From Thermoplasmata archaeon (GTDB lineage: Archaea > Thermoplasmatota > Thermoplasmata > Lutacidiplasmatales > UBA184): DNA of 64,000 nucleotides. Below, piece after piece: positions 6,529-56,466 of this stretch. Location: positions 2,429 through 66,428 of the forward strand of contig JASHPT010000012.1 in assembly GCA_030037955.1 (NCBI GenBank). The letters run 5' to 3'. Numbering within the stretch: the stretch's first letter is position 1; each line of letters starts with the position of its first letter. Position numbers and translations under genes: made by a program. Below the pieces are notes generated by a model. That model saw only the letters and a list, made by a program, of their open reading frames with translations, was not told where the DNA came from and did no database searches.

Positions 6529-7419
6529 TTACCTCGACCCACGGGGAGGGACGACCACCAGGTGGAACGGTAGGGCCGGGGCCGAGTGGGTCAGGCTCCC
6601 GAGGCTCGCGGCATCGGCGCCCGAGCGCGCGTAGGCCGCCACGTTCGTCCCATCGATCCCGCCCGAGACCTCGAGGTCGGCTGTGGCGCCCGCGGGGAAG
6701 CGGCGGATCGACCGGATGAGCCGATGGGCCGCTCGCGGGGAGAGGTTGTCGATCAAGAGGCTCCGCGCGCCGGCTCCCAGAGCCGCCCGAGCCTGAGCCA
6801 AGGAGTGGACCTCGACCTGGAGCGGCCGGCCATCGACCCGCCGTCGTCCCCGTCGGACCGCCTCGGCGACGGGGACGACGGCCAGGTGGTTCCCCTTGAT
6901 CAGTACCGCATCGGAGAGGTCTCGTCGATGCGGCTCGCCGCCACCGTGCACGACGGCAGCCTTCTCCAGGTCCCGGAGCCCGGGAAGCGTTTTCCGGGTG
7001 GCCCGGACCCGGAACCCGGGCCGGACCATCCGCGCGGCGCGGACCGCCCGCTCCGTCGCCGTCGCCACGCCCGAGAGATGCATCAGGAAGTTGAGGAGGG
7101 TCCGCTCGACCGACAGGATCCGGCGGAGGTCGCCCCGGAGCTCGAGCACGACGCTCCCCCGGTGCACCCGAGCGCCGTCGACGAGCCGGGCCGTGGCGCG
7201 GAGTCCGCCGATCCGTGCGATCATCTCGGCGACCTGCACGCCCGACAGCACCCCGGGGGCCTGGGCGATCACCTGCGCCCGAACGTCGAGTCGGCCCGGG
7301 AAGAGGGCTCGCGTCGTGGCGTCGTGGGTCCACCGGTCCTCTCGCAACGCCTCCCGGAGCTTCCCGGCCGTTCCCGGCGGGAGGCCGGGAGGTCCCGGCT
7401 CAGGACGCCGGTGCCGCAT
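6529..7419 (-). CDS. nadC: nicotinate-nucleotide pyrophosphorylase (quinolinate phosphoribosyltransferase) NadC
   Basis: Motifs ...LSGVQVAEMI...RKTLPGLRDLEKAAVVHGGGEPHRRDLSDAVLIKGNHL...LEVSGGI. Directly upstream of nadA on the same strand. Confidence 0.85.
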   Translation of the reverse strand: MRHRRPEPGPPGLPPGTAGKLREALREDRWTHDATTRALFPGRLDVRAQVIAQAPGVLSGVQVAEMIARIGGLRATARLVDGARVHRGSVVLELRGDLRRILSVERTLLNFLMHLSGVATATERAVRAARMVRPGFRVRATRKTLPGLRDLEKAAVVHGGGEPHRRDLSDAVLIKGNHLAVVPVAEAVRRGRRRVDGRPLQVEVHSLAQARAALGAGARSLLIDNLSPRAAHRLIRSIRRFPAGATADLEVSGGIDGTNVAAYARSGADAASLGSLTHSAPALPFHLVVVPPRGSR

Positions 7420-9835: not shown

Positions 9836-9863
9836 CGTCCTCGCCCCTTATCGGCGGGGCCGG

Positions 9864-9871
9864 GGTATATG
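9864..9871 (-). promoter_or_regulatory. TATA-like element (tcatatac on minus strand) upstream of AAA-TPR paralog 1
   Basis: Lies in the 56-nt spacer between the two AAA-TPR genes, ~30 nt upstream of ATG 9835. This suggests paralog 1 can be transcribed independently. Confidence 0.45.
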
Positions 9872-9891
9872 AGGGTAGCTCGGCGGAGCGC

Positions 9892-12315
9892 TCAGCGGCC
9901 CGGACGCGCGGCCTTGCGCGAGCGCGGGAGCCGCCCGCGAAGCTCCTCGTAATCGTGGGTCAGGTCCGGACGAAGTTCGGAGAGCCGACGACGCTCCAGC
10001 TCCTCGACCTGCTCGCGCACCGCCGGCCACTCCTCCCGGGTGGCCGCGACCTCGGCGAGGCGCAGCAGCACCTCGACGATGTCGGCCTCCATGTTCTGTT
10101 CCTCGAAGATCGCGAGCGCCTCCCGGAGCGCGTGCTCGGCCCCGTCGGGGTCGTTCCTCGACCGGCGGATCTTGCCTTCGTAGACATAGGTCTGCGCGAG
10201 CCCGAATCGGTCCCCGACCCGTTCGAGCTGCTCCCGCGCCTGCCGGTTATGGGCATCCGCCTCGTCGAGGCGATTGAGGTCGTGGAGGGTGTCGGCGATG
10301 TCGAAGAGTGCCCAGCCGGTACGGCGGGGATCGTTCGCCTCCCGGGCCAGCCGGAGCGCGTGGTGGAACTCCGTGAGCGTCTTCTCGGGGTCGTGGGTCA
10401 TGCCGAGGGCCACGCCGATGTAGATGTGGGCCTCGGCCGCCTCGGCCTTCTCCCCCATGCGCTCAAGCTCGGTCGCGGCCTTCCGCAGTCGCTCGATGGA
10501 CGGCTCGAGCTCGCCGGGCCGCATCGTGAGCGACCTGGCGTACCGGACCTCCTCGAGCAGCGTCTCCCGGGGGTCTCCCATCTCCTTCGTGGTCGCGAGA
10601 CCCTCGGCGTGGTAGCGGAGGGCCTCCGGGTAATCTCCCCGGAAATAGGCGAGCTCGCCGGCGAGCCGGACGGCCACGAGCCGGACCGGCGCCTCCCAGT
10701 CCTGCTCGGCGCGCGAGCGGATGAGCTCCCCCACCAGGCGGTCCGCCTCTCCCCACCGGCCCTGGTCCGACCGCACGAGCGCCAGGTAGAGGGGGAGCAG
10801 GTCCCGCTGCTGGGGCGTCGCCGCCGCCATCATGTCGGAACGGTCCGTGACCTGGCGCAGCGCCCGCTCGGCCCGGTCGAACTCGCCCACCCGGCGGAGC
10901 TGCCGGACCATCTCGAACAGAAGCTCGATCTCCTCGCCGAGCTCCACCGGCCGGCTGCGACGATGCGCCTCCAGCGCCCGCTCGAGATGCACGAGCGCCG
11001 TCCCCGGCAGATAGGCATCCGCCGCGAACCGCGCGGCAAGTCGGTTGTACTCGAGCGACTTTGCGTCGACGCGCCCGAGATGGAAGTGCCGGGCGAGGGC
11101 GAAGACGGAATCGACCTCCTTGGGGGCGCCGGCTTCGATCGCCTCCGCGACACGACGGTGGAGGATCCGGCGTCGGGTGTCCGTGAGGCCGTTGTAGAGC
11201 TCCTCCCGCAGGTCGTCGCGCGGGAACTCGAAGACCTCGTTCTCCGACTCCCGGAGGAGTCCCTGATGCACGAGGCGTTCGACGGCCTCGGCGAGCTCCT
11301 CCTCGTTCTCGTCGGTGGTCCGCGTCAGGATCGAGAACCGGGCCTTCGGGCCCAGGACGGCCGCGATCGTGAGCACTCGCCGGTCGCTCTCCGAGATCGA
11401 CCGGATCTGGTGCCGTAGCTGGCCCACGGGGTCCTCCGGCTCGGCGCTCTCCGAAGGAGCCCGGGCGGGTGAGGCGTGGATGAGCTGCTCCAGGAAGAGC
11501 GGGTTCCCCGAGGTCTGGGCGAACCAGCGGTGCAGCTGCTCGGGCGGGGTGACCCGGTCCGGCCGGGCCCAGCGGACGAAGTCCACGACCTCGCGCTCGC
11601 TCAGCGGCCGGACGGTGAAGCGGCGGGCCCCGGCGGCGACGAGACGCTCGAGACCGGCCCGGCCCCGGGGCTCCAGGCTCTCGAACGGCGGCGTGGTGCC
11701 GACCCACCAGATCCGCCGGGCCTCGAGCCGAGGCGCCACCTGCTCGAGGAACTCGATCGACCCTTCGTCCGCCCAGTGCAGGTCCTCGACGGCCACCAGG
11801 AGCGGCACCTGGTCGGCGAGGGCGAACATCGGCCCAGCCATCTCCTCCATCAACTGGACCCGGTCGGCCTGGAAACTGTCCCCGAGGGCCACCGACCGGA
11901 ACAGCGAGGACGATTCCCCGGCCCCGCCGGGTCGGAGTACGGCGGCCGGCGCGGCTCCGACGCCGAGCGCGACCGTCGGAGACACGATCGGTTGGGCGAC
12001 GTACGGGAAGGCCAGCGAGGAGGGGGTGGTGGCGCCGAGCGCCGCCGCCTCCCGGTCCACCGCCCGAACCACCGCCCGGATCAGCTGGAACGGCGCGGGA
12101 GCCTGCGCCTCGGAGCGGGCGGTGACGAGCCGAAAGTTGTGGAGCTGGCTTTCCTGTCCCAGGGCGGCCAGGATCGTGGACTTTCCGACGCCGGTCTCCC
12201 CCTCCAAGAGGGTGATCCCGCCGCGACCCCCGAGGACCTCCTCCCGACGATGGACCAGCGACTGGTAGAGGTCGAGGCGACCGATGAGCGGCCGGTCCGC
12301 CCGCGACGACTCCAT
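9892..12315 (-). CDS. AAA_16-type P-loop ATPase fused to TPR repeats (STAND-like NTPase), paralog 2
   Basis: The true start is ATG at 12315 (MESSRADRPLIGRL...). The 1180-aa ORF 9892..13434 on the track is a read-through artefact. Walker A LEGETGVGKSTILAAL and Walker B LLVAVEDLHWAD. Same architecture as paralog 1. Confidence 0.8.
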   Translation of the reverse strand: MESSRADRPLIGRLDLYQSLVHRREEVLGGRGGITLLEGETGVGKSTILAALGQESQLHNFRLVTARSEAQAPAPFQLIRAVVRAVDREAAALGATTPSSLAFPYVAQPIVSPTVALGVGAAPAAVLRPGGAGESSSLFRSVALGDSFQADRVQLMEEMAGPMFALADQVPLLVAVEDLHWADEGSIEFLEQVAPRLEARRIWWVGTTPPFESLEPRGRAGLERLVAAGARRFTVRPLSEREVVDFVRWARPDRVTPPEQLHRWFAQTSGNPLFLEQLIHASPARAPSESAEPEDPVGQLRHQIRSISESDRRVLTIAAVLGPKARFSILTRTTDENEEELAEAVERLVHQGLLRESENEVFEFPRDDLREELYNGLTDTRRRILHRRVAEAIEAGAPKEVDSVFALARHFHLGRVDAKSLEYNRLAARFAADAYLPGTALVHLERALEAHRRSRPVELGEEIELLFEMVRQLRRVGEFDRAERALRQVTDRSDMMAAATPQQRDLLPLYLALVRSDQGRWGEADRLVGELIRSRAEQDWEAPVRLVAVRLAGELAYFRGDYPEALRYHAEGLATTKEMGDPRETLLEEVRYARSLTMRPGELEPSIERLRKAATELERMGEKAEAAEAHIYIGVALGMTHDPEKTLTEFHHALRLAREANDPRRTGWALFDIADTLHDLNRLDEADAHNRQAREQLERVGDRFGLAQTYVYEGKIRRSRNDPDGAEHALREALAIFEEQNMEADIVEVLLRLAEVAATREEWPAVREQVEELERRRLSELRPDLTHDYEELRGRLPRSRKAARPGR

Positions 12316-14718: not shown

Positions 14719-16914
14719 TTACAGGAGCTTAAGCGCTCGGGCCACGCGCTCCGGCGTCAGCGGGAGTTCGAAGACTCGCGTACCGGTCGCATCCGCGACG
14801 GCGTTGGCAACGGCCGCAGGCACCGGAATGATCGGCGGCTCGCCGATCCCTTTGGCGCCGAACGGCCCGGCACCGGCAAACCCCTCGATCAGGTCGACGT
14901 GGATCGGCGGCGCGTCCCGGATCCGGGGCAGCCGGTAGTCCAGGAGTCCGGGGTTCAAGAGCCGGCCGTCGGGCGTCCACATCATCTCCTCGGACAGCGC
15001 CGTGCCCAGCCCCATCACGACCCCGCCCTCGACCTGCGCCTCGACCGCCGGTCGGTCCACGGCGGTGCCGACGTCCTGGAAGGCGGCGTAGCGTACGATG
15101 CCGATGTGGCCGGTCTCCCGGTCCACGGCGACCTCGACCAGATGGACGGAGGCGGCGAAGTCGTTGTACGGATAGACCGTCCCCTCCAGCACCCGCGACG
15201 CATCGACCTTCTTCTCCGCCCCGTAATGCTTCCCGTGAGCCTCGAGGCCCCCGGCGGCCCGCTCCGCCGGCGTCAGCAGGTCGACCAGCTTCTGCCGGCG
15301 ACGGCCCGAGACGACCAGGACCTGCCCGTTCTTCGTCTCCAAGCGGACCTGCGGCGCCCCGACCCGAGTCGCCAGCGTCTTCTCGAGCGCTCGGGCCGCT
15401 TTCTCCACGGCCTGCCCCAGGGCCGCCAGGGTCCGGCTCCCGTAGACCCCGGAATCGAACGGCGCCGTGGCCGTGTCCCCGTACTGGATCCGGATCGCAT
15501 TCGCGGGGAGACCCAGCACCCGCTGCGCCACCACCGAGAGGCCGCGAACGACACTCCCGTTGCCGATCTCCCGCTCTCCCTCGAGGATCACGAGGCCATC
15601 CGGCTGGAGGAACAGGCGGGCCTCTCCGCCGGCTCCCACGCCCGTCGACCAGAAGCCACAGGCGACGCCGATGCCGTGCCCGGCCGGAATTCCGGTTCTC
15701 CAGACGGCGGCCGTGCGGGCCGCGGCCTCGAGGCCGGCTTCGAGGCCGAAGGGACCGACCGGCTGGTCGTAGGCGGTTCGGTCGTTCTCGCGCCACGCAT
15801 GGATCTTTCGAAACTCGATGGGGTCGGCGCCGAGGCGACGTGCCAGGCCGTCGATATGCGACTCGAGGGCGAAGACGGATTGCGGTGCGAACGGGGCCCG
15901 GTGGGGCCCGAACGGCGGCTTGTTCGTTCGGAGGGCGTAGCCCTCGATGTCGTAGGCCTCGGTGCGGTAGGGTCCCAGCAGGAAGCCAATCGAGTACCCG
16001 ACGGCAAAGTCCCGGCCGGGGAGGGACGCGCCGGTGTCCAGGAGCAGGCGCACACGACGTGCAACGATCCGGCCGCGGGCCACGGCCGTGTCGAGTCGGA
16101 TGACTGCGGGCAGGGTCGTGCGGCCGAGTTCGAACTCCTCGGCGTAGGTCAGGGCCAATTTGACCGGGCGCCCGCTCGCGACCGCCAGAAGGAGGGCGTA
16201 CGGTTCGATGAACGCCGACCCCTTGCCCCCGAAGCCCCCGCCGACCCAGCTCCCCTCGACGAGGAGCTTGGCCTCGGGAATTCCCAGGACGGAGGCTACG
16301 TCTTCCCGCAGTCCGAAGGGTGTCTGGGTCGAGGTGCGGATACAGAACGTGCCGTCCCGGATCTCGCCGAGGCAGGCGTGCGGTTCGAGCGCCACCTGAT
16401 GGACGCCGCTGGTACGATACGTCTCCGAGTGGACGAGCTCCGCGGTCCGGAACTTTCCGTCCACATCCCCGTGACGGGCATGCACGTGGCCCACCACATG
16501 CGGGTCATCCGCCGCCGCCGCGGAAGGCCACTCTGGAAAGATGTCCTCGATGCGGGCGTCGACCCGAAGGCTCTCGACCTCCACGGCAACGGCGGCGGCG
16601 GCCCGACGAGCCTGCGCGAGGGTCTCGGCCGCCACGGCGGCGACCGGTTCGCCCCGATAGCGGATCTCCTGGAGAGGGAACACGGGCCGCTCCACCTCGA
16701 GCGCGGCTTTCGGGAGCAGGGTGCGCAGGTCGTCCGGGCCGACCACGGCGACCACTCCGGGCATCTTGCGGGCGCCGGCCAGGTCCATGTGCACGATCCG
16801 GCCGTGAGCCACCGGCGAGCGGACCAGAGCGGCCCACAGCATCCCGGGCGCCTCGAGGTCGGTGCCGTACTCGAGCGCCCCACGGGCCTTCGGCTCCGCG
16901 TCGGAGCGCATCAT
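14719..16914 (-). CDS. xanthine dehydrogenase family molybdopterin-binding large subunit (CoxL-like)
   Basis: The true start is the MMRSDAEPKARGALEYGTDLEAPGMLWAALVRSPVAHGRIVHMD... methionines, which overlap the coxS stop as ATGA. Aldehyde oxidase/XDH a/b-hammerhead plus molybdopterin-binding domains. The substrate is not determinable from sequence. Confidence 0.85.
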   Translation of the reverse strand: MMRSDAEPKARGALEYGTDLEAPGMLWAALVRSPVAHGRIVHMDLAGARKMPGVVAVVGPDDLRTLLPKAALEVERPVFPLQEIRYRGEPVAAVAAETLAQARRAAAAVAVEVESLRVDARIEDIFPEWPSAAAADDPHVVGHVHARHGDVDGKFRTAELVHSETYRTSGVHQVALEPHACLGEIRDGTFCIRTSTQTPFGLREDVASVLGIPEAKLLVEGSWVGGGFGGKGSAFIEPYALLLAVASGRPVKLALTYAEEFELGRTTLPAVIRLDTAVARGRIVARRVRLLLDTGASLPGRDFAVGYSIGFLLGPYRTEAYDIEGYALRTNKPPFGPHRAPFAPQSVFALESHIDGLARRLGADPIEFRKIHAWRENDRTAYDQPVGPFGLEAGLEAAARTAAVWRTGIPAGHGIGVACGFWSTGVGAGGEARLFLQPDGLVILEGEREIGNGSVVRGLSVVAQRVLGLPANAIRIQYGDTATAPFDSGVYGSRTLAALGQAVEKAARALEKTLATRVGAPQVRLETKNGQVLVVSGRRRQKLVDLLTPAERAAGGLEAHGKHYGAEKKVDASRVLEGTVYPYNDFAASVHLVEVAVDRETGHIGIVRYAAFQDVGTAVDRPAVEAQVEGGVVMGLGTALSEEMMWTPDGRLLNPGLLDYRLPRIRDAPPIHVDLIEGFAGAGPFGAKGIGEPPIIPVPAAVANAVADATGTRVFELPLTPERVARALKLL

Positions 16915-17387
16915 TGAACGGCCTTCCGCGCCAAGGCCACCGCCCGCTCGATCGCCCGGTAGCCGGTGCACCGGCACAGGTTCCCTTCCAGGCCGTCGAC
17001 AAGCGACTCCACGTCCGGTGGGCTTTTGCTCCGGCCGAGCTGGGCCGCGAGCGCCACGACAAATCCGGGCGTGCAATAGCCACACTGCACGGCCCCGGCC
17101 TCGGCAAAGGCCTTGATGACTGCCTGACCGATCGGTACCGCCGCGACGCCCTCGATGGTGGTCACGGGCTCGTCACCCACCTCTCGGGAGAGGAGCAGGC
17201 AGGAGAGCGTCGGCTCGCCGCCCACGAGCACCGTGCAGGCGCCGCAGTCCCCGGTCCGGCAGCCCTCCTTCGTGCCCTTGAGGCCGGCGCGCCAGCGGAG
17301 CGTATCGAGCAGCCGCTCCGCGTCCGGGACCGACGCAAAGCGTCGGCTCTGACCGTTGATGTGGAGCGCCAGCGCCGCGTCGGTCAT
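16911..17387 (-). CDS. (2Fe-2S)-binding small subunit of molybdenum hydroxylase (CoxS-like)
   Basis: 158 aa with two 2Fe-2S motifs: CRTGDCGAC and CGYCTPG...CRCTGY. It is the C-terminal part of the fused 648-aa ORF on the track. Confidence 0.85.
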   Translation of the reverse strand: MTDAALALHINGQSRRFASVPDAERLLDTLRWRAGLKGTKEGCRTGDCGACTVLVGGEPTLSCLLLSREVGDEPVTTIEGVAAVPIGQAVIKAFAEAGAVQCGYCTPGFVVALAAQLGRSKSPPDVESLVDGLEGNLCRCTGYRAIERAVALARKAVQ

Positions 17388-18310
17388 CGAGACGGCTTCC
17401 GGGCCGCCGCGGGCCGCGGCATGCGGTCGATCGTGGTCTGCAGGGCCCGCCGTACCATGACCGCCACCAATCGGCGACGATACGACTCGGTGGCGCGCTT
17501 GTCGGAAACGAACTCCGCCCGCCGGGCCGCCTCCTGAGCCGCGAGCTCCTGCTCCAGGTGGGTCGGTCTGGCCGACCGCAGCACGGCCTCCGCCTCGCTC
17601 AGTCGACGGGCCCGGGGCTGAAGCCCACCCAGGGCGATACGCCAATGCGGCGCGTCCGGGAGGTACGCGGTCGCGACACCGACCTGAGAGATGTCGTTCA
17701 CGGGCTGCACCCGTTGCCACATGTAGGTCGACGGAGCCGCCGAGGGAAAGATCAGCGATTCGATGAGCTCTGCCGGTCCCAGGTTCGTTTTTCTCGACTC
17801 CTGCAGCACCAGATCGACCGGATGTTCCCGAACACCGCTCGGTCCGAGGATGCGAACGCGTGCGTCCAGCGCGATCAGCATCGGAAGCAGGTCGGAGGCA
17901 GGAGAGCAGCGGCCCACGTTGCCCCCGAGCGTCGCCCGGGCCCTGAGCGCGGGACTTCCGACGTCCCGGATCGCCTCCCAAAGGCCGGGCAACTGCTGCT
18001 GCACACGCCGATCGAGCTCGAGGGTTCGCAGCGGAAGCGTGCTCCCGACGACGAGACTGGATCCCTCCCATCGCAGGTACCGCCACGGCATCTTCCGGAG
18101 CGAGAGTACCTGCCGCGGAGAGGCCCGGGCCTGATCGATGTCGATCAGCAAGTCGGTTCCACCCCCCAGAACCGACATCTGGCCGGCCGACGCGCCCGCC
18201 AGCAGCCTCACAGCTTCCTCCGGAGTGGCCGGCTGGACCAGCTGAAAGCTCACGCGCACTCCGACCGGGCGGCGATTGATAGCCTTTCGGTGCGCGACGA
18301 GGCTCGACAT
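17384..18310 (-). CDS. FAD-binding subunit of molybdenum hydroxylase (CoxM-like)
   Basis: LGGGTDLL FAD-binding motif and CO dehydrogenase flavoprotein fold. ATGA overlap with coxS. The real start may be an internal GTG. Confidence 0.8.
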   Translation of the reverse strand: MSSLVAHRKAINRRPVGVRVSFQLVQPATPEEAVRLLAGASAGQMSVLGGGTDLLIDIDQARASPRQVLSLRKMPWRYLRWEGSSLVVGSTLPLRTLELDRRVQQQLPGLWEAIRDVGSPALRARATLGGNVGRCSPASDLLPMLIALDARVRILGPSGVREHPVDLVLQESRKTNLGPAELIESLIFPSAAPSTYMWQRVQPVNDISQVGVATAYLPDAPHWRIALGGLQPRARRLSEAEAVLRSARPTHLEQELAAQEAARRAEFVSDKRATESYRRRLVAVMVRRALQTTIDRMPRPAAARKPSR

Positions 18311-26254: not shown

Positions 26255-27793
26255 ATGCGTCGTGGTTGGAGGCTCCTCCGTCAGCACGGTCGTCGCGCAC
26301 GCTCGGCGCAGGTCAGCGCCGTGGCGACGCTGCTGGCCCTGATGCTCTTCGTCTCGTTCCTCGCGACCTTCGTGTTCGGGGAGTTGCCCTCGCAGATGGG
26401 CACGCAGGAGTTCCTGCACCAGTCCCAGGTCGAGGACCAGCTCGGGCGTCTCCAGGACTCGGTGATCGAAGCCGCCAACGCTCTCAACGGGAACGGCTCG
26501 AGCTACCTCTCGAACCCGGTCACCCTCAACTCCGGCGGCGTGCCTCCGTTCGGGACTCCCTCCACGGGCAGCATCGTGGTCGAGCCCACCTACGTCGGCG
26601 CGACCGCCGCCTTTGGGGTCTCGAACGTCACCGCCGCCAACGTCGGGTGGGGCCACGGCTCCTCGTGTTTCTCGACCGGGAGCGGAACCTGCACGACGGG
26701 CTCCGGGACGGAGGTCTACAACTTCTCGGGGAACAAGAGCACCGTCAGTCCCACCATCGCGGGCTGCGCGGCGGCGGGCTGCTCGGTCGTGTTTAACGTG
26801 ACGGGCAACTCGAATGCGCTCACGGTGACGCTGACCGGGGCGGCGATCAAGACGGTCCTCGTCCAGGTTTCCGGCAACTGGGACAACCTGACGCTCTCGG
26901 ACGGCGGGACCTGTAACCTCCACCAGAGCGTGGCCGTGGTCTTCTCCGGAAACAACGATAGCTACACGCTCACGATGACCGGGTGCACGACCGGACTCGG
27001 CGCCAATCTCAACACCACCTTCGTCGGCTCGTCGGGGTCGCTGTGCCCGTACGGGAACGCCGCCAGCTCGGACACGTGGAAGGGGGCGACCTGGGGATCC
27101 TCCACCGGGATCTTCCAGAACCTGACCTGGCAGAACGCCTTCGGCATCACCTCGCCGGAGAACTCGATCCCGGCGAACGGGGGCCACAACCACGTGACCT
27201 TCTCGAACCAGAGCGGCTACTTCCAGTGCCTGTTCACCACCGCGCAGACGAGCGGACCGTACACGCTCCACTTCCTCTCCGGGGTGCGGGTCCAGCTCAA
27301 CAATCGGTACACGCCCGTCACGTCGGTGGCCTACGACCAGGGCGCCGTCATCCTGGGACAGCAGAACGGGGGCTCGATCATGATCGACCCCCCGCAGTCC
27401 TCGTACGTGCAGCAGCCGTTCGGCGTCTCCTACGCGATCACGCTGGTGAGTCTCGTCGGGTCGACCGGCGCCGCGTCGGGGCTCGGCACCGTGGCCGTCG
27501 TCTCGAGCATCCTCTCCGAGCAGACGTACAACATCATCGACGGTCGGCACTCCAACACGTACCTGCCCTACATCTACCTCAACTTCACGACGGCGTTCCC
27601 GCAGGCCTGGGCCACCTACTTCTCGCACCAGACCGTCATCGACCCGGCCGGCGTGACCTGCACCCCGGGCCCGGGCGGTACGGTGGCGAACTGCCTCACC
27701 CCGCAGAACAACGGGCTCTCCACGATCTCGGTACCGATCAACGCGAGCGAGTTCACGCTCAACATCATCGTCGCGCAGGTCAGCATCGGCTGA
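26255..27793 (+). CDS. secreted/cell-surface protein with pilin-like N-terminal signal, rich in N-glycosylation sequons
   Basis: N-terminus RRARSAQVSAVATLLALMLFVSFLATFVF (class III-like signal). Numerous N-x-S/T sequons (NGS, NVT, NFS, NKS, NLT, NDS, NTT, NQS, NFT, NAS) and paired cysteines. Gly/Ser/Thr-rich. GC is lower than in the flanks. Confidence 0.7.
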   Translation: MRRGWRLLRQHGRRARSAQVSAVATLLALMLFVSFLATFVFGELPSQMGTQEFLHQSQVEDQLGRLQDSVIEAANALNGNGSSYLSNPVTLNSGGVPPFGTPSTGSIVVEPTYVGATAAFGVSNVTAANVGWGHGSSCFSTGSGTCTTGSGTEVYNFSGNKSTVSPTIAGCAAAGCSVVFNVTGNSNALTVTLTGAAIKTVLVQVSGNWDNLTLSDGGTCNLHQSVAVVFSGNNDSYTLTMTGCTTGLGANLNTTFVGSSGSLCPYGNAASSDTWKGATWGSSTGIFQNLTWQNAFGITSPENSIPANGGHNHVTFSNQSGYFQCLFTTAQTSGPYTLHFLSGVRVQLNNRYTPVTSVAYDQGAVILGQQNGGSIMIDPPQSSYVQQPFGVSYAITLVSLVGSTGAASGLGTVAVVSSILSEQTYNIIDGRHSNTYLPYIYLNFTTAFPQAWATYFSHQTVIDPAGVTCTPGPGGTVANCLTPQNNGLSTISVPINASEFTLNIIVAQVSIG

Positions 27794-33276: not shown

Positions 33277-34041
33277 GTGCGGCTTCCGTTCTGGCCCCGG
33301 CGAGCTCCGGAGGAGCGGCGGCACGCCATCGCGACCCTGCAGTCGCTCGGCACGACGTCGATCGCGGGCCTGGCGGCGGCACTCTCCTGGTCCGTCCCAC
33401 GGACCGAACGCGTCCTCCAGGAGCTGGTTCGCCACGGTCCTCCCGGACTGATCTACGATTCCCGGTCCGGAACGATACGTTGGGGGACCCCGGCCGCCTC
33501 CCCCGCTCGGTCGACTGCGACCGTGCCCTCCTCCGCCCGTACTCCCGGCTGGATCACCGCCACGGCCCGCAGTTCAGGTCGTTCAGGTCCCGCGCCGGCC
33601 GCCCCCTCCGTCCCGCCACCGGTGACCCCCGAGTCGCGTAGCCGGCCGCCGGTATCCTCACCGGCACGTGCCCCGCCCTCCCCGGCCACCGACTACGCCC
33701 TGCGGGAGTGTACGAAGTGTCACATCCCGCTGGTGCCGACCGGCGCGCCGGAGGAGTTCGCCTGTCCGATGTGCGGTCGCACGGTGACGAGCACCGGGGC
33801 CCGGGTCTCGTCGGCCGCCGCCCGCCCTTCGGCTCCGCCCGGACCCGACCCGAGAATCCAGCAGTTGATCGCCGCCTGGGCCACGGGCCAGCCGGCGCCC
33901 TGCCCCCACTGTCACCAGCCGCTCCGTCACACGGCGGACGGCGAGTTCCGTTGCGGCTCGTGTGGCGCACGGATCTCGTACGGCACGGCCCCGGCCACCG
34001 CCGGAGCCCCGGCCACACCCGCCGCCGGGTCCGCGCTCTAG
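33277..34041 (+). CDS. winged-helix + double zinc-ribbon protein (putative transcription factor)
   Basis: N-terminal wHTH-like AIATLQSLGTTSIAGLAAALSWSVPRTERVLQELVRHG, a Pro/Ser-rich linker, then CTKCHIPL...CPMCGRTV and CPHCHQPL...CGSCGARISYG. GTG start. Confidence 0.5.
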   Translation: MRLPFWPRRAPEERRHAIATLQSLGTTSIAGLAAALSWSVPRTERVLQELVRHGPPGLIYDSRSGTIRWGTPAASPARSTATVPSSARTPGWITATARSSGRSGPAPAAPSVPPPVTPESRSRPPVSSPARAPPSPATDYALRECTKCHIPLVPTGAPEEFACPMCGRTVTSTGARVSSAAARPSAPPGPDPRIQQLIAAWATGQPAPCPHCHQPLRHTADGEFRCGSCGARISYGTAPATAGAPATPAAGSAL

Positions 34042-35564: not shown

Positions 35565-35648
35565 GGGTGGCCGGGTGGGAGAGCGGGAAGGGAAAAAGGA
35601 GACCCCCGGGGAGTTCCGGCCCCCGGGGGTACGGGTCGAGCGACCGCG

Positions 35649-36176
35649 CTAGGCCGGATAGACGATCTCGCCGCCGGACTTCTGCATGGACGGGGCGCGT
35701 CGCGTCTGGGCGCCCTTGGTCTTCCAGAACAGCTCGGCGAACTCCTGCACCTGCTTGACCAGCTCCTGGGCATCGGCCAGCGCGATGCCCTGCCGAGCCT
35801 TGGACGCCTGCTTCATGATCTTCCAGACCATCTCGTGAGCCTGCGGGTACTGCTTCGCGTGGTCGGGGGTGAAGTAGTCGCCCCAGATCACCCGAACCTC
35901 CTGCTTCACCTTCTCGGAGTGCTGCTCCTTGACGGCCGTGTATCGGGCGAGCTTCGAGGCATACGCCGCCCGGTCCTCCGGCTTTGCGTCCATGGCCGGC
36001 ATCGGGAGCTCGCCGATGAGCTGGTCCATGCGCAGGACGGTCAGCGCGGCGATCTGCGCCTCGTGCGGGTCATAAATACCGCACGGAATGTCGCAGTGCG
36101 CGTAGACCGTGCGCGGGGCGACCAGAGCGTCTACGAGTCGGTGTCCGAGTTCCGTGGACCAGATGCGGCCGGGCAT
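35649..36176 (-). CDS. sodN: nickel-containing superoxide dismutase precursor (Ni-SOD, SodN) with N-terminal propeptide
   Basis: Propeptide MPGRIWSTELGHRLVDALVAPRTVYA precedes the Ni-hook HCDIPCGIYDP. WGDYFTPDHAKQYPQ and the C-terminal ...FAELFWKTKGA match Streptomyces SodN closely. The start was found by codon count and the 'cat' was confirmed at 36174-36176. Confidence 0.85.
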   Translation of the reverse strand: MPGRIWSTELGHRLVDALVAPRTVYAHCDIPCGIYDPHEAQIAALTVLRMDQLIGELPMPAMDAKPEDRAAYASKLARYTAVKEQHSEKVKQEVRVIWGDYFTPDHAKQYPQAHEMVWKIMKQASKARQGIALADAQELVKQVQEFAELFWKTKGAQTRRAPSMQKSGGEIVYPA

Positions 36177-36206
36177 GGCCCCGCGAGCCCGGAGAGTCGG
36201 ATAAGG

Positions 36207-36689
36207 ATGCCGGACGCGACTCCGGTATCCGTCCCGGACCCGCGTCCGGAACCTCGATGGCCGTTTCGCCGGATCCGGCACGTCCTCGTGGCCGACGAGA
36301 GCATGAGGCCAGCGCTCCGTCCGGGCGACCGGCTGCTTGTGGACCGGACCGCGTACCGCGAGGGACCCCCGCGGCTCGGTGACATCGTAGTTCTCGCGGA
36401 CCCGGCGCAGCCGGGCCGATGGCTCATCAAGCGCGTCGCTGCGGTCGGCCCTGGCCGGTTCTGGAAAACGCCCATCGGTCCCTTGCCGGCCGCGGGGCCG
36501 GACGTGGAGGAGACGCCCCCGCCCGGGCCGGCCGTCGAATCGGTCACCCTCGCTCCGTCCTCCGTGTACGTGCTCGGCGATGGCCCGGGATCCCGGGACA
36601 GCCGCGAGTTCGGCCCCGTCCCGCTGGCTGCTCTCGCGGGCCGGGCCTACCGATGCTATGCCCCACCCGACCGGCGCCGCGCATTGTAG
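36207..36689 (+). CDS. sodX: Ni-SOD maturation protease SodX (S26 signal-peptidase-like)
   Basis: 160 aa with catalytic Ser and Lys candidates in VADESMRPALRPGDRLLVD and RWLIKRVAAVGP, and GDGPGSRDSREFGPVP. Divergent from sodN with a 30-nt spacer. ggag lies 13 nt upstream of the ATG. Confidence 0.75.
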   Translation: MPDATPVSVPDPRPEPRWPFRRIRHVLVADESMRPALRPGDRLLVDRTAYREGPPRLGDIVVLADPAQPGRWLIKRVAAVGPGRFWKTPIGPLPAAGPDVEETPPPGPAVESVTLAPSSVYVLGDGPGSRDSREFGPVPLAALAGRAYRCYAPPDRRRAL

Positions 36690-36721: not shown

Positions 36722-37891
36722 ATGTGGAATTTCGCCACATCGATGTCCGGTTCGTCCTCGCCGTCTGCGTCGCCACCGACCGCCCCGCCGGCCACCGCCT
36801 CCCGATCCGTGGTCGTGATCGTCGTGATCCTGGTCGCCCTGGGCGGCGTCGGCCTGGGGTTCGTCGCCGGCTACGAGTACCGGGGATCCCCGGCGGCTGC
36901 ACCGAGCGTGGTAGCGAACGATACCCTCTCCATCCTGGGCGCCGGCACCCTCATCAACATCTTCCCCAGCCTAGCGTCTGCGCTGGTGAACTACACCCCG
37001 AACATCTCCGCGCCGTCCGCCGCGCAGACGTACGAGGGCTCGCTCGACATCACGACCGCGATCACGACCCTGGCCTCGAAGGCCGATGTCGCCGCGGTCG
37101 CGGACTTCCGCCTCATCCCCTCGCTGCTCCAGCCCAAGTTCGCGAGCTACGAGGTCGTCTTTGGGACCACCGCCGAGGTGCTCTGTTACAACCCGTCCCT
37201 CAGCGTCTTCGACGGCATCAACTCGACCAACTGGGCGTGGAAACTCGTCCAGGACGTGAAGACTCCCGGCAATGCACCGTTCGCGATCTGGAACGCCTCG
37301 TCCGACCCGAACGGCTACAACGAGATCTTCAGCCTCATGCTCCAGGGCCTGCTCTACAACGACAGCGCCTCGATCTTCTACAACACGTTCTACTCCGGCG
37401 GGTCGTCGAGCCCGGCGGTCGGGAACTCGTCCACGACCGTGCTCGAGCACGAGTCGCACGCCACCAGCCTGCTGGCGGACGGCACGGCCTCCGCCCTGAT
37501 CACCTACCGGGCCTTCGCTGTCACGGACGCCGGCTGTCCCGCGTACGTCGAGATGAATCCGATCGTCGGCCTGGAGGCGAACAACTCCACCGCGCTCGCG
37601 GAGTACGCGAAGCTCTCCACGACGCTGTACTCGTCCTCGGGGGGGTACGCGACGGCAGTGCCCGCCCCCATCCTGTTCTCCGTGACAGTGCCGTCGAACG
37701 CGCCGAACCCGGCCCTCGGCGCCGCCTTCATCCATCTCCTGCTCTCTCCCCTGGGAGCGAAGATCCTCTCGGCCAACGGAGCCTTCGACGTCATCTTCCC
37801 CGGCTGGTCGAATGACCCCTCGGCGGTGCCGTCGGTTTTAGCCCCCGACGTGGTGGCCCTGCCATCGTGGGCGAGTCCGTTCCTGAGCTGA
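36722..37891 (+). CDS. ABC transporter substrate-binding protein, WtpA/ModA-like (tungstate/molybdate), N-terminally membrane-anchored
   Basis: Ser/Pro-rich N-terminus plus TM helix, then a periplasmic-binding fold (SILGAGTLINIFPSLASAL...). In an operon with a ModB-like permease, a ModC-like ATPase and a ModE-like regulator. Confidence 0.65.
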   Translation: MWNFATSMSGSSSPSASPPTAPPATASRSVVVIVVILVALGGVGLGFVAGYEYRGSPAAAPSVVANDTLSILGAGTLINIFPSLASALVNYTPNISAPSAAQTYEGSLDITTAITTLASKADVAAVADFRLIPSLLQPKFASYEVVFGTTAEVLCYNPSLSVFDGINSTNWAWKLVQDVKTPGNAPFAIWNASSDPNGYNEIFSLMLQGLLYNDSASIFYNTFYSGGSSSPAVGNSSTTVLEHESHATSLLADGTASALITYRAFAVTDAGCPAYVEMNPIVGLEANNSTALAEYAKLSTTLYSSSGGYATAVPAPILFSVTVPSNAPNPALGAAFIHLLLSPLGAKILSANGAFDVIFPGWSNDPSAVPSVLAPDVVALPSWASPFLS

Positions 37892-38772
37892 ACCCCGCGG
37901 GGGAGAGCGGGCCGCCGGTCGCCCGCCGGCGCTGGCGGGCCGGCGGGCTCTGGACCGGACTTCAGGTCGTTCTCTCGGCGTCGCTGCTGCTGCTCTTCCT
38001 ACTCCCGATCGTCGCGCTCTTCACCTACGCCCCGGTCTCGCACATCTTCGGGGCCGCGTCGAACGTCAATGTCCGAGCGGCGCTCTGGCTCACCTTCCTC
38101 GCCTCGGGCGTGGCCGTCCTCGCCGCGATCGTCTTCGGGATCCCCCTCGGCTATCTCCTGGCCCGACGGGCCTTCCCGGGCCGCGGCGTCGTCGAGGCGT
38201 TCGTCGCGCTTCCGGTCGTGATCCCCCATCTCCTCGTCGGCCTCGGCCTGTTCCTGCTCTTCATCCCGGGAACGCCGCTGTTCCGGTTCAGCCAGTCGAT
38301 CGGCTTCCCCGTCTACGACACGATCTGGGGCGTGGTGCTGGTGATGGTCTTCGTGAGCGCCCCCTACACGGTGCTCGCCAGCATGCTCTCCTTCCGCGCG
38401 GTCGATGGCCGGGTGCTGGAAGCCGCCCGGTCCCTCGGCGCGGGCAGCGCCGTCGCTTTTCTGACCGTCACCTTCCCGCTGGCGCTTCGGGGGATCGTGG
38501 CCGGGCTCCTGCTCTCGTGGGCGCGGGCCGTGAGCGAGATCGGCGGTCTGCTCGTCATCGCGTACGCGGTCTACCCGGGGGGCCTCTACACGGGCCCGGT
38601 CACGTCCACGATCTCGATCTACATCTACGACGAGTTCCAGGGCGGGAACCTGAGCGGCGCGGCCGCGGTGAGCTCGCTCTTTCTCTTGATGGCCTTCGCG
38701 CTGTTCCTGCTCGTCCGGGTGGGAGAGCGATCCGGCTGGCTGCCGTGGCACCGGGGGGAGCTCGCGCCATGA
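37867..38772 (+). CDS. ABC transporter permease (ModB/WtpB-like)
   Basis: 6-TM MetI-like permease. EAA-like loop LEAARSLGAGSAVAFLTVTFPLALRGIVAG. Stop overlaps the next start as ATGA. Confidence 0.8.
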   Translation: MGESVPELNPAGESGPPVARRRWRAGGLWTGLQVVLSASLLLLFLLPIVALFTYAPVSHIFGAASNVNVRAALWLTFLASGVAVLAAIVFGIPLGYLLARRAFPGRGVVEAFVALPVVIPHLLVGLGLFLLFIPGTPLFRFSQSIGFPVYDTIWGVVLVMVFVSAPYTVLASMLSFRAVDGRVLEAARSLGAGSAVAFLTVTFPLALRGIVAGLLLSWARAVSEIGGLLVIAYAVYPGGLYTGPVTSTISIYIYDEFQGGNLSGAAAVSSLFLLMAFALFLLVRVGERSGWLPWHRGELAP

Positions 38773-39809
38773 CGCGGTGGGTCGTCGAGCGGATGGAGAC
38801 GGCGCTCGACCGGTTCCAGCTCGGGCCGGTGAGCCTGGACCTGTCGCCCGGCTCCGCCGTCGCCGTGCTCGGTCCCTCGGGAGCCGGCAAGACGACGCTG
38901 CTTCGAACGCTCGCGGGCTTCCTCCATCCCCGGCAGGGTCGGATCCTGCGGGATGGCGTCGACATCTCCCGCTGGCTACCGGAGGAACGTGGGCTCGGCT
39001 ACGTCCCCCAGGGGCTCGGCCTCTTCCCGCAGCGGACCGTCGCCCGAAACATCCGGTATCCGTTGGAGATCCGCAACGCGTCCGATGCCGAGTCCCGGAC
39101 GCGGGAGCTCCTGGAGCGGTTCCACCTGAGTGCGCTCGCGGACCGGTACCCCTCGCGGCTGAGCGGAGGGGAGCAACAGCGGGTCGCGATCGCCCGGGCG
39201 CTGGCCGCCGGCCCGAGTCTCGTCGTCTGGGACGAGCCCTGGCAGGGCCTTGACGTGGTCGCACGCTACGAGCTCGGCCAGGTGCTGCACGACCTCCGGG
39301 AAACGGACCGGATCCCGATGGTCGTCGTGACGCACGACCCGTCCCTCGCCTTCTCGGTCGCGGACTCCTTCCTCGTGCTCCACGAGGGCCGCGTGCGGGA
39401 CCAGTGCGACGCCACGGCCCTCCTTCGCGCTCCCTCGGACGCGTTCGCGGCCCGCTTCGTGGGGTTCGAGAACGTCTACGACGCGGACGCCCTCCGAGGC
39501 GGCGCACCGGGGTCGTTCCGAACCTGGCTGCGACAGTGGGCGGGGCCGGAGGGTATCGCCTTCGCGAGCCCGGACCCGTCGGCCGTCGCCCCCGGCGGTC
39601 CCCTGTGGGACACGGTCGTCCGCAGCGCGCGCCCGGGCCCGACCGGGGTGACGATCGAGAGTCGGTGCGACGAGCTCTTGGTCACGCTGCGGGTCGCGCC
39701 GCCCGTGACCCCCCCGCTGCCCGCTCCGGGCACCCGACTCCGGTTCTCCCTTCGGCCGGAGTCTCTGCTCGCCCTGGGACCCGGGGCGTCCCGGGGCGTC
39801 GCGATATGA
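38769..39809 (+). CDS. ABC transporter ATP-binding protein (ModC/WtpC-like) with C-terminal TOBE-like domain
   Basis: Walker A GPSGAGKTTLL, signature LSGGEQQRVAIARAL, Walker B LVVWDEP, H-loop VTHD. The true start is ATG at 38769. The ORF-track 38517 start is upstream read-through. Confidence 0.85.
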   Translation: MTRWVVERMETALDRFQLGPVSLDLSPGSAVAVLGPSGAGKTTLLRTLAGFLHPRQGRILRDGVDISRWLPEERGLGYVPQGLGLFPQRTVARNIRYPLEIRNASDAESRTRELLERFHLSALADRYPSRLSGGEQQRVAIARALAAGPSLVVWDEPWQGLDVVARYELGQVLHDLRETDRIPMVVVTHDPSLAFSVADSFLVLHEGRVRDQCDATALLRAPSDAFAARFVGFENVYDADALRGGAPGSFRTWLRQWAGPEGIAFASPDPSAVAPGGPLWDTVVRSARPGPTGVTIESRCDELLVTLRVAPPVTPPLPAPGTRLRFSLRPESLLALGPGASRGVAI

Positions 39810-40495
39810 CGCCCCGACACCGGATCGTCACCGACACGGACGTCGCGCTCCTGCAGAGCCTGGCCCACGAGCGGTCCGTGGTCGCCGCCAGCCGGAGGAT
39901 CGGCATCTCCCGGGACCGGGCCGTCTACCGGCTGTCCCGTCTCGGCCAGGCGTTCGGCGGACCGGTCGTCACCGGGGTACGGGGCGGCCGCTCGTTCGGC
40001 GGGAGCCGGCTCACGCCGCTCGGCGACCGGATCGTGCGGGAAGGGTTCGATTCGGTGGAGCTGCTCAAGGCGCGGCCGCTCGCCAACCCCTCCCGGTCGA
40101 ACCTGCTCCATGGCGTCTTCCACCCGGAGCCCTCGCCCACCGTCGTCGTCGGGCCGGGCCTCAAGCTCCGCGTCTCGTTCGTGGCCGAGGAGGCGGAGCC
40201 GGTCTCCCTGCTCCTCGACCCCGAATCGATCCTGGTCGCCCGGGGCCGATTCGCGTCGAGCGCCCGCAACGTGCTCGCCGCGGTCGTCGACGAGATCCGG
40301 CCGGGACCGGGCGCCCACGGCCGGACGGTCCTGGCCCGCGTGGGCCGCGTGTCCCTCCGGGCGTCCGTGACCGAGGAGACGGTCGCCCAGATGCGTCTCG
40401 CGCGCGGCGCGCGGGTCTTCCTGTACGTGAAGGCCACGGCCCTGCGGCGGGTCGGTCTGCCCCGGAAGGCTACTCGCGGATCCCCTCGCCGGTGA
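39806..40495 (+). CDS. ModE-like molybdate-responsive transcriptional regulator (N-terminal HTH + TOBE domains)
   Basis: [46 protein letters not shown] resembles the ModE N-terminal domain. ATGA overlap with the ATPase stop. Confidence 0.65.
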
Positions 40496-54836: not shown

Positions 54837-55078
54837 AGTCCGCTCCCGAGGGCCCAGGCGAGTACGCAGAGCAGTATCCCCAGACCGAGCAGCCACCACA
54901 CCCAGCCGCCGCGGCCTTCCCAGCGGAGGCGCGACGTCAATTCCCGTTCGTGCACGAGACTCCCTCGGGAACGTGCCTCGATGCTCGCACGGGTCGGCCC
55001 GAGCGGCGGGGGGTGACGGCGGTACCAGAACGCCCGCGGACAGTACGCGTACTCCGCGAGGTCGCTGACGCTCACCCA
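54833..55078 (-). CDS. Cas4/DUF83-like nuclease, N-terminal part (YCPR Cys1 motif) ending in a hydrophobic helix
   Basis: (M)SVSDLAEYAYCPRAFWYRR...SLVHERELTSRLRW..., then GWVWWLLGLGILLCVLAWALGSGL and stop. The GTG start at 55078 avoids overlap with the upstream gene. The ORF-track ATG is at 55111. Confidence 0.45.
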   Translation of the reverse strand, partial: WVSVSDLAEYAYCPRAFWYRRHPPPLGPTRASIEARSRGSLVHERELTSRLRWEGRGGWVWWLLGLGILLCVLAWALGSGL

Positions 55079-56466
55079 CCCGGCGGTGTGGGGAGGGGAG
55101 GCGCCGCCCATGCGGGTCGCTCGGAGCCTGTGGCGCCTTCAAACCGGGGGGTGGAGTGGAAGCTGTCGGAGGGTGGGTCGGGGGCGGGGCCCGGCCGGGT
55201 GGGCCCGGGCCCGGGAGCGGCGCTCGCGCCCCGGCCCGGGAATTGCGGCGACCACTCCCGCAGGATGAGGATCAGGAGCGCGAGGAGGCCGACGCCGAAG
55301 AGGCCGCCCAGGCCCTCGGAGAATCCGCAGGCGCCGCTCTGCTGGCACATCGGGAGCGCCACCGTCGCGTCGAGGATCCCCACCGCGCCCAGGGCGAAGA
55401 GCCACCGGCCATACGCGGGTCCGAGGAGCGCGACCGGTACGAGCCAGATGAGGAAGTTCTCCGTGAACCGCTGCGCCACGAGCGCGACGATGACGGTGAG
55501 GAGGGCGACCGCCGGAACGGCCGACCAGCGTCGGAGATGCACGAACACGATCCCGGCGAGGAGCGCGAGCCCCTGGACCGCGATGAGCACGTCGGACGGC
55601 GGCATCATGTGAAGCGGGATCAGGACGCCGAACTCGTTGATCGAAAGGTCGGCGCGGGTCAGCTGCTGACTGAACAGCAGGCTGTAGGCGTAGTTGCCCC
55701 AGACGAGGCCCACCATGAGGCTGAGTCCGCCGAACACCACGATCGAGATCGCGAGCTCGCGCCAACGGACCCGGCCCGTTCCCGAGAGACCGCCCCAGAA
55801 CGGGAACAGCGACGGAAACTTCACCGTGGAGAGCAGCCCCGCCACGGCGCCGGCGGCCGGATTGCGACGGAGCGCCAGCCAGATCCCGAGCAGGGCCGTG
55901 ACCGGAACGATCGCGCTGTGACCCCCCTGGATCGACCCGACCACCAGCGGAGCAAACACCGGCGTGGTCGCCACGACGAGCGTCGCATACCACCGCTCCC
56001 GGACCGCCAGCGCCCAGGTCAGCGGGATCAGGCTGAGCGCGACGGCATTCCACACCAGCCAGATGCCGACCCGTCCCCCGAGGCTGCCGAGCGCGTCGAG
56101 GAGTACCGACGCGATCCCGTACGGAACGTGCACGGAGTGACCGCACTGGAACGTGACGAACGGATTGATCCCGGCGAGGAGGTTCTGCCCGGACTGCAGC
56201 AAGGCGAGCGTGTCGTCCTCCCCGGCCGAGCAGGGGATCGGTGCGGACTGGATCCAGGCCGCCAGCACGAAGACCACGCCCAGCACGACGGCCACGACCC
56301 GCCAATCCCACGGGATCCTCCGGAGGGAGCCGAGCGGCCGGACGAGGACGCGGTCTACCGCGGCACGGAATGCGGCTGCCCGGGGCCAGCCGTAGAGGAG
56401 CACCAACCCGCCGACGACACCGGCGACGAGCTCGGGCGCCGACGCCGCGAGAACCGAGGAGGTCAA
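55072..56466 (-). CDS. polytopic integral membrane protein, GT-C-like glycosyltransferase (DUF2029/GT87-like) suspected
   Basis: ~11 TM helices. Acidic EDD motif in the first extracytoplasmic loop (SAGEDDTLALL). Pro/Gly-rich C-terminal tail. Confidence 0.6.
   Translation of the reverse strand: MTSSVLAASAPELVAGVVGGLVLLYGWPRAAAFRAAVDRVLVRPLGSLRRIPWDWRVVAVVLGVVFVLAAWIQSAPIPCSAGEDDTLALLQSGQNLLAGINPFVTFQCGHSVHVPYGIASVLLDALGSLGGRVGIWLVWNAVALSLIPLTWALAVRERWYATLVVATTPVFAPLVVGSIQGGHSAIVPVTALLGIWLALRRNPAAGAVAGLLSTVKFPSLFPFWGGLSGTGRVRWRELAISIVVFGGLSLMVGLVWGNYAYSLLFSQQLTRADLSINEFGVLIPLHMMPPSDVLIAVQGLALLAGIVFVHLRRWSAVPAVALLTVIVALVAQRFTENFLIWLVPVALLGPAYGRWLFALGAVGILDATVALPMCQQSGACGFSEGLGGLFGVGLLALLILILREWSPQFPGRGASAAPGPGPTRPGPAPDPPSDSFHSTPRFEGATGSERPAWAAPPLPTPPGG

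Follow-up and report, generated by a model that had tools for sequence, protein, structure and literature searches.

Nickel superoxide dismutases (Ni-SODs) have long been held to be bacterial enzymes, typical of actinobacteria, cyanobacteria and marine bacteria. In this family, the ligand chemistry of the N-terminal nickel hook and the cycling of the bound metal between Ni(II) and Ni(III) are well established, and structures are available for the Streptomyces coelicolor and S. seoulensis enzymes (1T6U, 1Q0D). The locus analyzed here comes from a Thermoplasmata archaeon of the Lutacidiplasmatales (UBA184; assembly GCA_030037955.1). It lies within positions 2,429 to 66,428 of contig JASHPT010000012.1, a stretch of 64,000 nucleotides hereafter called the window, and it comprises two divergent genes, sodN and sodX, encoding a Ni-SOD precursor and its presumed maturation peptidase. 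Sheridan et al. (2022; PMC9287336) describe Lutacidiplasmatales genomes of about 2.1 Mb and about 69% GC from acidic soils, count SOD (Ni), K00518, as one of their stress genes and note a peptide/nickel ATP-binding cassette (ABC) system in the order; their supplement infers that Ni-SOD was gained by the common ancestor of the Thermoplasmatota other than Thermoplasmatales and Acidiprofundales. Both the presence of Ni-SOD in Lutacidiplasmatales and its deep gain in Thermoplasmatota are already published (PMC9287336).

Our analysis makes it highly probable that sodN-sodX constitutes a resident cytoplasmic system for superoxide detoxification in a high-GC soil archaeon, and that the two genes were gained together in the distant past and have been inherited vertically since. 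The pair is standard, long-inherited equipment of Lutacidiplasmatales and not a peculiarity of one genome. GC content, the identity of the closest genomes and synteny likewise make this order the most probable home of the organism.

The SodN precursor and its SodX partner

The minus-strand gene had been taken for a Ni-SOD precursor in an earlier reading made from the letters alone (henceforth the sequence-only reading), and profile searches bear this out. SodN passes the thresholds of both Pfam Sod_Ni (PF09055; 6e-45, 153.3 bits; cutoff 25) and the NCBIfam equivalog model for sodN, TIGR02753 (155.8 bits; cutoff 90). Its AlphaFold2 (AF2) model is a four-helix bundle with a predicted local distance difference test score (pLDDT) of 81. 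The top Foldseek matches of this model are the NiSOD structures 1T6U and 1Q0D, with target TM-scores of 0.86-0.91, and all 16 matches at E <= 0.001 are NiSOD structures.

The precursor was also proposed to carry a propeptide of 26 residues, and this length holds, because in an alignment with the PDB sequences of mature Streptomyces NiSOD (1T6U, 1Q0D) His27 falls on the first residue of the chain. The comparison of related loci is equally regular, with the sodN ATG placed exactly 26 codons 5' of the hook in 83 of the 83 loci that have enough upstream sequence, and with a conserved propeptide pattern in the archaeal loci, RL.DAV.PPR.VYA, directly followed by the histidine. The AF2 model forms a propeptide helix at residues 7-18 and has low confidence at residues 25-30. 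The hook itself keeps His1, Cys2 and Cys6 on careful alignment: HCD[ILVM]PCG[ILVM]YDP is found in 85 of 85 archaeal loci, and H1, C2, D3, P5, C6 and Y9 are invariant both in 81 archaeal SodN sequences and in 50 other representatives, the latter having been chosen for carrying the hook motif. On the other hand, the similarity to Streptomyces SodN does not run through to the C-terminus, as had been claimed, but ends at residue 155, at some 31-33% identity, and leaves residues 156-175 as an extra tail. The motif of this tail is conserved within the archaeal clade, AF2 models it as a beta hairpin (158-162 and 170-174), and comparable tails are present in many bacterial long-form NiSODs. We considered this tail, as well as the loss of the Glu17/Arg47 pair, as possible archaeal novelties, and ruled out both, since they are common in bacterial long-form NiSODs.

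The start codons of sodN and sodX are exactly 30 nt apart (gap 36177..36206), and the 160-residue product of sodX belongs to the S26 peptidases, as the sequence-only reading had it (Pfam Peptidase_S26, PF10502; 1.4e-18). SodX scores 59.4 bits against the bacterial profile TIGR02227 sigpep_I_bact (cutoff 47) and 17.1 bits against TIGR02228, which stands for the archaeal Sec11 type. Across 41 homologues Ser32, Lys75 and D131 do not vary and S132 and R133 hardly do, and the lysine of the IKR box (Lys75) aligns with that of E. coli LepB. The same protein is the top Foldseek match of the SodX model (pLDDT 88; query TM-score 0.60-0.66), with the human signal peptidase complex, a eukaryotic assembly, as a far weaker structural match. 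No transmembrane segment or membrane anchor is found in SodX, whose maximum 19-residue Kyte-Doolittle hydropathy is 0.76, as against 1.39-2.26 in two bacterial SodX homologues with N-terminal hydrophobic segments. The residues at the cleavage site of SodN, Val at -3 and Ala at -1, are consistent with S26 specificity.

An identical 160-residue SodX occurs in the database, encoded on a 74-kb NCBI contig. Alignment of 68 orthologues reveals an insertion of about 23 residues that occurs only in the closest relatives (L005-L007, L011 and L029) and is absent from the others inspected; AF2 confidence drops to 70-75 within it, and a few orthologues in this alignment look truncated or frameshifted. Some of the insertion-free orthologues have been named "nickel-type superoxide dismutase maturation protease" by the Joint Genome Institute (JGI). 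Overall, SodX diverges much faster than SodN, with identities among relatives of 38-76% versus 73-93%. Many SodX database entries are truncated at the 5' end to 90-130 residues and begin at a Met just past the catalytic Ser. In these genomes of 70% GC, gene callers can easily overlook sodX or cut it short at the 5' end, and surveys that count "sodN without sodX" may be misled for this reason.

We conclude that sodN and sodX almost certainly represent a genuine, functional Ni-SOD and its presumed maturation protease. In the sequence of events that we propose, a TATA-like box some 27 nt 5' of the sodN ATG would drive transcription of the gene as a leaderless mRNA, to be translated into the 175-residue precursor. 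As in the homologous systems of Streptomyces and cyanobacteria, the soluble Ser32/Lys75 peptidase SodX would then cut this precursor after Val-Tyr-Ala26, following the S26 rule of small residues at -3 and -1. Cleavage would expose His27 as the new N-terminus, allowing its amine and imidazole, the amide of Cys2 and the thiolates of Cys2 and Cys6 to fold into the nickel hook, where cycling between Ni(II) and Ni(III) would dismutate superoxide.

Table 1. Features of the sodN-sodX locus, in window coordinates.
Feature	Position	Strand	Description	Basis
sodN	35649..36176	-	Ni-superoxide dismutase precursor; 175 aa + stop	Pfam, TIGR02753, AF2/Foldseek
SodN propeptide	36099..36176	-	26 codons, MPGRIWSTELGHRLVDALVAPRTVYA; final V-Y-A directly before His27	PDB alignment, locus comparison
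Ni-hook	36066..36098	-	HCDIPCGIYDP, SodN residues 27-37 = mature 1-11 (His1, Cys2, Asp3, Pro5, Cys6, Tyr9)	
SodN C-terminal tail	35652..35711	-	Residues 156-175, AQTRRAPSMQKSGGEIVYPA; lacking in Streptomyces NiSOD	PDB/Pfam alignments stop at 154-155
sodX	36207..36689	+	Soluble bacterial-type S26 Ser/Lys peptidase, presumed NiSOD maturation protease; 160 aa + stop	Pfam, TIGR02227, motifs, AF2
SodX subclade insertion	36459..36527	+	~23 aa, residues ~85-107, FWKTPIGPLPAAGPDVEETPPPG	Alignment of 68 orthologues
Promoter-like motif	36198..36213	-	TCCGGCA[T/A/C]CCTTATCC, -37..-22 of sodN ATG	Position matrix, 79 distinct upstream sequences
AT-rich patch	36072..36078	+	ATAAATA; codons GGT-ATT-TAT (Gly-Ile-Tyr of hook)	Codon comparison
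T5 run	35593..35597	-	Candidate archaeal oligo-T terminator, 52 nt past sodN stop	Sequence reading only

Distribution, origin and alternative explanations

A search of 5.8 billion proteins yielded 5216 SodN homologues, and the best 120 of them, which were examined, are 73-100% identical to the protein described here and nearly all 174-178 residues long; every organism-named entry among these 120 is a "Thermoplasmata archaeon". Within the species-representative genomes of GTDB, 234 encode a SodN relative. The best 80 of these, with identities of 73-93%, are metagenome-assembled genomes (MAGs) of Thermoplasmata, among them UBA184 and genomes whose names follow the AcS/SubAcS style of Sheridan et al.; the one locus among them labelled merely "bacterium" is mislabelled. 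The arrangement of the pair is also maintained. By tblastn, an S26 gene lies divergently beside sodN in 81 of 84 archaeal loci, the remaining three having sodN within 177 nt of the end of the locus, and the 30-nt spacing recurs in at least seven related loci. In 64 of 73 loci the next gene downstream of sodN is hutH, and in 68 of 74 the gene for a Wtp-like binding protein, the only component of the neighbouring ABC importer that was checked, lies beyond sodX. A deep archaeal relative with a SodN 52% identical (GCA_027314915.1) retains the order sodX-sodN-hutH, followed by a flavin adenine dinucleotide (FAD) oxidase, thioredoxin and purH, and sodX adjoins sodN in bacterial relatives too.

HMMER, run exhaustively against 1.84 billion cluster representatives, returned 752 SodN clusters. 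Among the best full-length non-archaeal matches is a Chloroflexota cluster (P0123) with 55% identity; another cluster, with 53% identity (P0122), comes from bacterial genomes of about 2 Mb in which sodN is found beside rplKAJL with a divergent S26 gene, and further bacterial clusters carry sodN and sodX in the same direction. A neighbour-joining (NJ) tree built from 132 sequences unites the 81 archaeal SodN proteins and cluster P0124 in one clade. The Chloroflexota-type sequences score highest, yet it is a different bacterial pair, P0128/P0132, that appears as NJ sister of the archaea in the base tree, and in a minor share of the bootstrap replicates as well. Identification of a bacterial donor was attempted and abandoned, NJ trees of a protein of about 150 columns failing to resolve the sister group. 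A bacterial ultimate origin of the cassette is nonetheless likely, because SodX is a Ser/Lys peptidase of bacterial type and not an archaeal Sec11 and because the closest outgroups belong to the bacteria; the event itself is ancient. The two genes were probably acquired from bacteria no later than the base of the order, and the gain may date back much further within Thermoplasmatota; they have been inherited vertically ever since, in the fixed neighbourhood Wtp-like ABC - sodX <> sodN - hutH seen in the window. As a separate observation, one bacterial relative (P0136, locus L094; SodN 44% identical) has a gene for a CbiM nickel/cobalt transporter (1244-1912) about 5 kb from sodN, and a 100-residue product without a Pfam match directly after sodN, at the place where sodX would be expected.

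The sequence-only reading had considered the pair noteworthy in its archaeal context and probably horizontal. Of this proposal the bacterial ultimate origin stands as likely, while the event has turned out to be ancient and the pair widespread, syntenic and already published. A recent gain, with sodN-sodX as a foreign island from Actinobacteria, Cyanobacteria or marine bacteria, draws some credit from the fact that Ni-SOD is best known from bacteria, from the bacterial Ser/Lys type of SodX, as reflected in its TIGR02227 and TIGR02228 scores, and from the bacterial nature of the nearest non-archaeal relatives. It is nevertheless very improbable and has been largely refuted: the best bacterial matches are just 53-55% identical, as opposed to more than 80 archaeal species at 73-93%, and Streptomyces SodN is more distant still. 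The closest homologues are essentially an archaeal clade, those with organism names being Thermoplasmata. Synteny is held across the order, with the same locus in at least 80 related species genomes, no integrase, transposase or other mobile-element gene is present within ±10 kb of the pair, and the published reconstruction puts the gain deep in the phylum (PMC9287336). Composition is native as well, and so is the codon usage of sodN (G+C at third codon positions, GC3, of 0.90; codon adaptation index-like score of 0.75, rank 29 of 39 and above the window median), so that a comparison with neighbouring genes, suggested as a check on foreign ancestry, gives no foreign signature; sodX scores low in it, yet has a GC3 of 0.82. 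An assembly or binning artefact, by which a bacterial fragment would have been joined to archaeal DNA or binned with it, is scarcely credible. It could appeal to every genome involved being a MAG and to the "bacterium" label of one related locus (L046), but the pair sits in the middle of the 64-kb window with archaeal markers on both sides, PolD DP2, L7Ae and S28e lying farther away than RadA, and dozens of assemblies made independently show the same arrangement, contigs of 0.3-1.8 Mb among them.

Several results do weigh against a resident, vertically inherited Ni-SOD system. Bootstrap support for archaeal monophyly is only moderate, at 63% whether P0124, the deep member, is included or not, and the sister of the archaeal clade varies between the NJ tree and its bootstraps; the 64-kb window shows no nickel importer; and cleavage after Ala26, nickel loading and activity are all inferred. 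The remaining points concern SodX and would also suit a scheme in which the S26 gene does not encode the SodN protease but is a pseudogene in decay or specifies a signal peptidase of general or secretory function, SodN then maturing through a different enzyme or autocatalytically. Against the dedicated profile TIGR02754 sod_Ni_protease, SodX scores 47.8 bits, under the cutoff of 63.25, in a match that spans just profile positions 3-61 of 90, probably because the subclade insertion interrupts it. The codon-adaptation score of sodX, 0.58, is the lowest of the window genes, and the gene is uncalled on four NCBI MAG contigs with identical SodN (L001-L004), which is why a pseudogene was suspected. 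The faster evolution of SodX relative to SodN and the truncated or frameshifted appearance of some orthologues can be read in the same sense. The pseudogene is ruled out, however, by the intact open reading frame (ORF), the catalytic motifs, the confidently predicted S26 fold and the identical protein in the database, the Ser, Lys and RDSR box being invariant or nearly so in the 41 homologues. SodX also lacks the membrane anchor that a secretory signal peptidase requires, and its gene remains adjacent to sodN in every archaeal locus with enough sequence, and also in bacterial relatives. Moreover, the start codon of sodX is ATG, TTG or GTG in 71 of 81 in-register loci, and G is essentially absent from the variable position of its reverse complement in the related loci. 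A role for SodX other than the maturation of SodN hence appears very improbable, and the interpretation of the pair as an anciently acquired and since then resident Ni-SOD system is the one that we retain.

Control regions and genomic surroundings

Upstream of sodN, the promoter-like motif of Table 1 contains a TATA-like core, TTAT, at -28..-25 (36201-36204) that is 90-100% conserved, whereas the neighbouring intergenic positions are variable; by way of background, AT-only 4-mers occupy just 0.31% of window positions. The geometry of this box, if taken at face value, implies an archaeal TATA box and a leaderless mRNA. The start codon of sodX sits within the same motif, which resembles a B recognition element (BRE) joined to a TATA box.

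A second peculiarity is found within the hook codons. Gly7 of the hook is encoded by GGT in 64 of 85 loci and Ile8 by ATT in 73 of 85, against backgrounds of 3-10% and 4-12%, respectively, in these genes of GC3 about 0.9. Deep archaeal relatives and high-GC bacterial relatives with other gene arrangements have GGC/GGG ATC TAC at this site and no such bias. The resulting patch, which reads AATACC/ATAAATA on the opposite strand about 130 nt upstream of sodX, might speculatively be a candidate TATA box for sodX or some other DNA or RNA element. One could then imagine that the control regions of the two genes have been compacted to interlock, with the start of sodX in the sodN promoter and the sodX promoter perhaps inside the hook codons, an idea that we put forward as doubtful. 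If it were true, the sodX mRNA would start about 100 nt within sodN, antisense to the sodN 5' end, and protease and substrate would be expressed either in a coupled way or to the exclusion of each other, as a result of promoter occlusion or of antisense pairing. At the other end of sodN, the T5 run listed as a candidate terminator also falls at -29..-33 of the hutH ATG.

The GC content of the window is uniformly about 70%, and the sodN-sodX region, at 0.70-0.71, is like the whole. The archaeal context invoked by the sequence-only reading is well founded. Pfam matches in the flanking genes include PolD DP2, two PurP domains, L7Ae, S28e and an archaeal type IV pilin N-terminus, RadA scores 492.7 bits against a cutoff of 259 and lies 4 kb from the pair, and further genes of the window encode a class I Tyr/Trp-type tRNA synthetase, a family-X polymerase, FtsZ and NadA. 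The same reading saw no dedicated nickel importer next to the pair and took the adjacent ABC system to be specific for tungsten or molybdenum, and both statements agree with our results. No nickel transporter family is found within ±10 kb of the pair or in 30 further window proteins compared with Pfam. The ABC importer beyond sodX (36722-40495, plus strand) has WtpA, WtpB and WtpC as its best matches, at 100, 181 and 195 bits, scores that all fall far short of the curated cutoffs. Its genes are followed by one for a ModE/Mop-domain protein, also matched below the curated cutoff. The substrate is presumed to be an oxyanion such as tungstate or molybdate. Co-transcription of sodX with this importer was considered as a metal-supply link and is weakened, the binding-protein gene having its own TATA-like TTATA at -30..-26; the oxyanion class of the importer (Mo/W/sulfate) and its ModE/Mop partner weaken such a link further.

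Other parts of the window yielded a few observations in their own right. A molybdopterin-dependent enzyme of the xanthine/CO-dehydrogenase family is encoded at 14719-18310 on the minus strand, with a MoCoBD subunit of 787 residues and an FAD-binding subunit, which is consistent with a W/Mo-type transporter nearby. Three long ORFs, at 6896-9952 (+), 26255-27793 (+) and 55072-56466 (-), of 1018, 512 and 463 residues, have coding-like GC3 and no Pfam match, and the 512-residue product has a hydrophobic N-terminal segment. Between a response-regulator gene and hutH, at 33277-34041 (+), an ORF of 254 residues with two CxxC...CxxC zinc-ribbon-like motifs is uncalled on related contigs; its GC3 is 0.82, but its G+C at second codon positions is unusually high (0.74), which makes it a doubtful candidate gene.

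Comparison with described Ni-SOD systems

The Streptomyces enzymes share family and fold with the archaeal SodN, together with His1, Cys2, Asp3, Pro5, Cys6 and Tyr9 of the hook and, outside it, Arg39, Asp61 and Tyr62. They also resemble it in a propeptide that ends in Ala before His1 and in a dedicated gene for a soluble S26 peptidase beside sodN. The archaeal propeptide, at 26 residues, is longer than that of Streptomyces, at 14 residues. The archaeal protein further differs in having 13 additional residues between its first and second helix, and in its 20-residue C-terminal tail. The Glu17/Arg47 pair, which hydrogen-bonds His1 in Streptomyces, is replaced by Ala/His, the majority state among non-actinobacterial NiSODs, and Lys64 of Streptomyces is Thr in all archaeal sequences. 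The host, finally, is an archaeon, and the predicted promoter is of archaeal type.

The Ni-SOD reported by Sheridan et al. belongs to the same gene family and the same lineage, and two of the closest loci (L008, L033) come from genomes with names in the AcS/SubAcS style, but the passages of that paper searched here contain no description of a sodX partner, a 26-residue propeptide, a 30-nt divergence or the promoter presented here (PMC9287336). Keyword searches of the literature found no reports on NiSOD in Thermoplasmata, and none on archaeal SodX in open-access articles. Beyond its correct annotation, the pair in itself matters little. The broader point is that Ni-SOD is the standard cytoplasmic superoxide dismutase of an order of aerobic soil archaea, in which it travels with a bacterial-type maturation protease. 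Ni-SOD and SodX in this order are consistent with the published view that Thermoplasmatota adapted to aerobic life via ancient gene gains.

The top-scoring relatives outside the Archaea are long-form bacterial NiSODs of 172 residues, at 53-55% identity, from Chloroflexota MAGs (e.g. MCI0889386.1) and from bacteria with genomes of about 2 Mb. These proteins share with the archaeal SodN both the tail motif (...TKG..T.R.PS.Q..GGE.V.P) and the Ala17/His47 state, and transfer between the two groups may have proceeded either way. Their genomic context differs, with rplKAJL and the genes for NusG and SecE nearby, and their propeptides, of 22-23 residues, are shorter than the archaeal 26. In the bacterial genome of about 2 Mb the S26 gene is likewise divergent from sodN, and the gap between sodN and the called S26 gene is of 185-205 nt, as compared to 30 nt in the archaeal locus, the bacterial S26 call being probably truncated at its 5' end.

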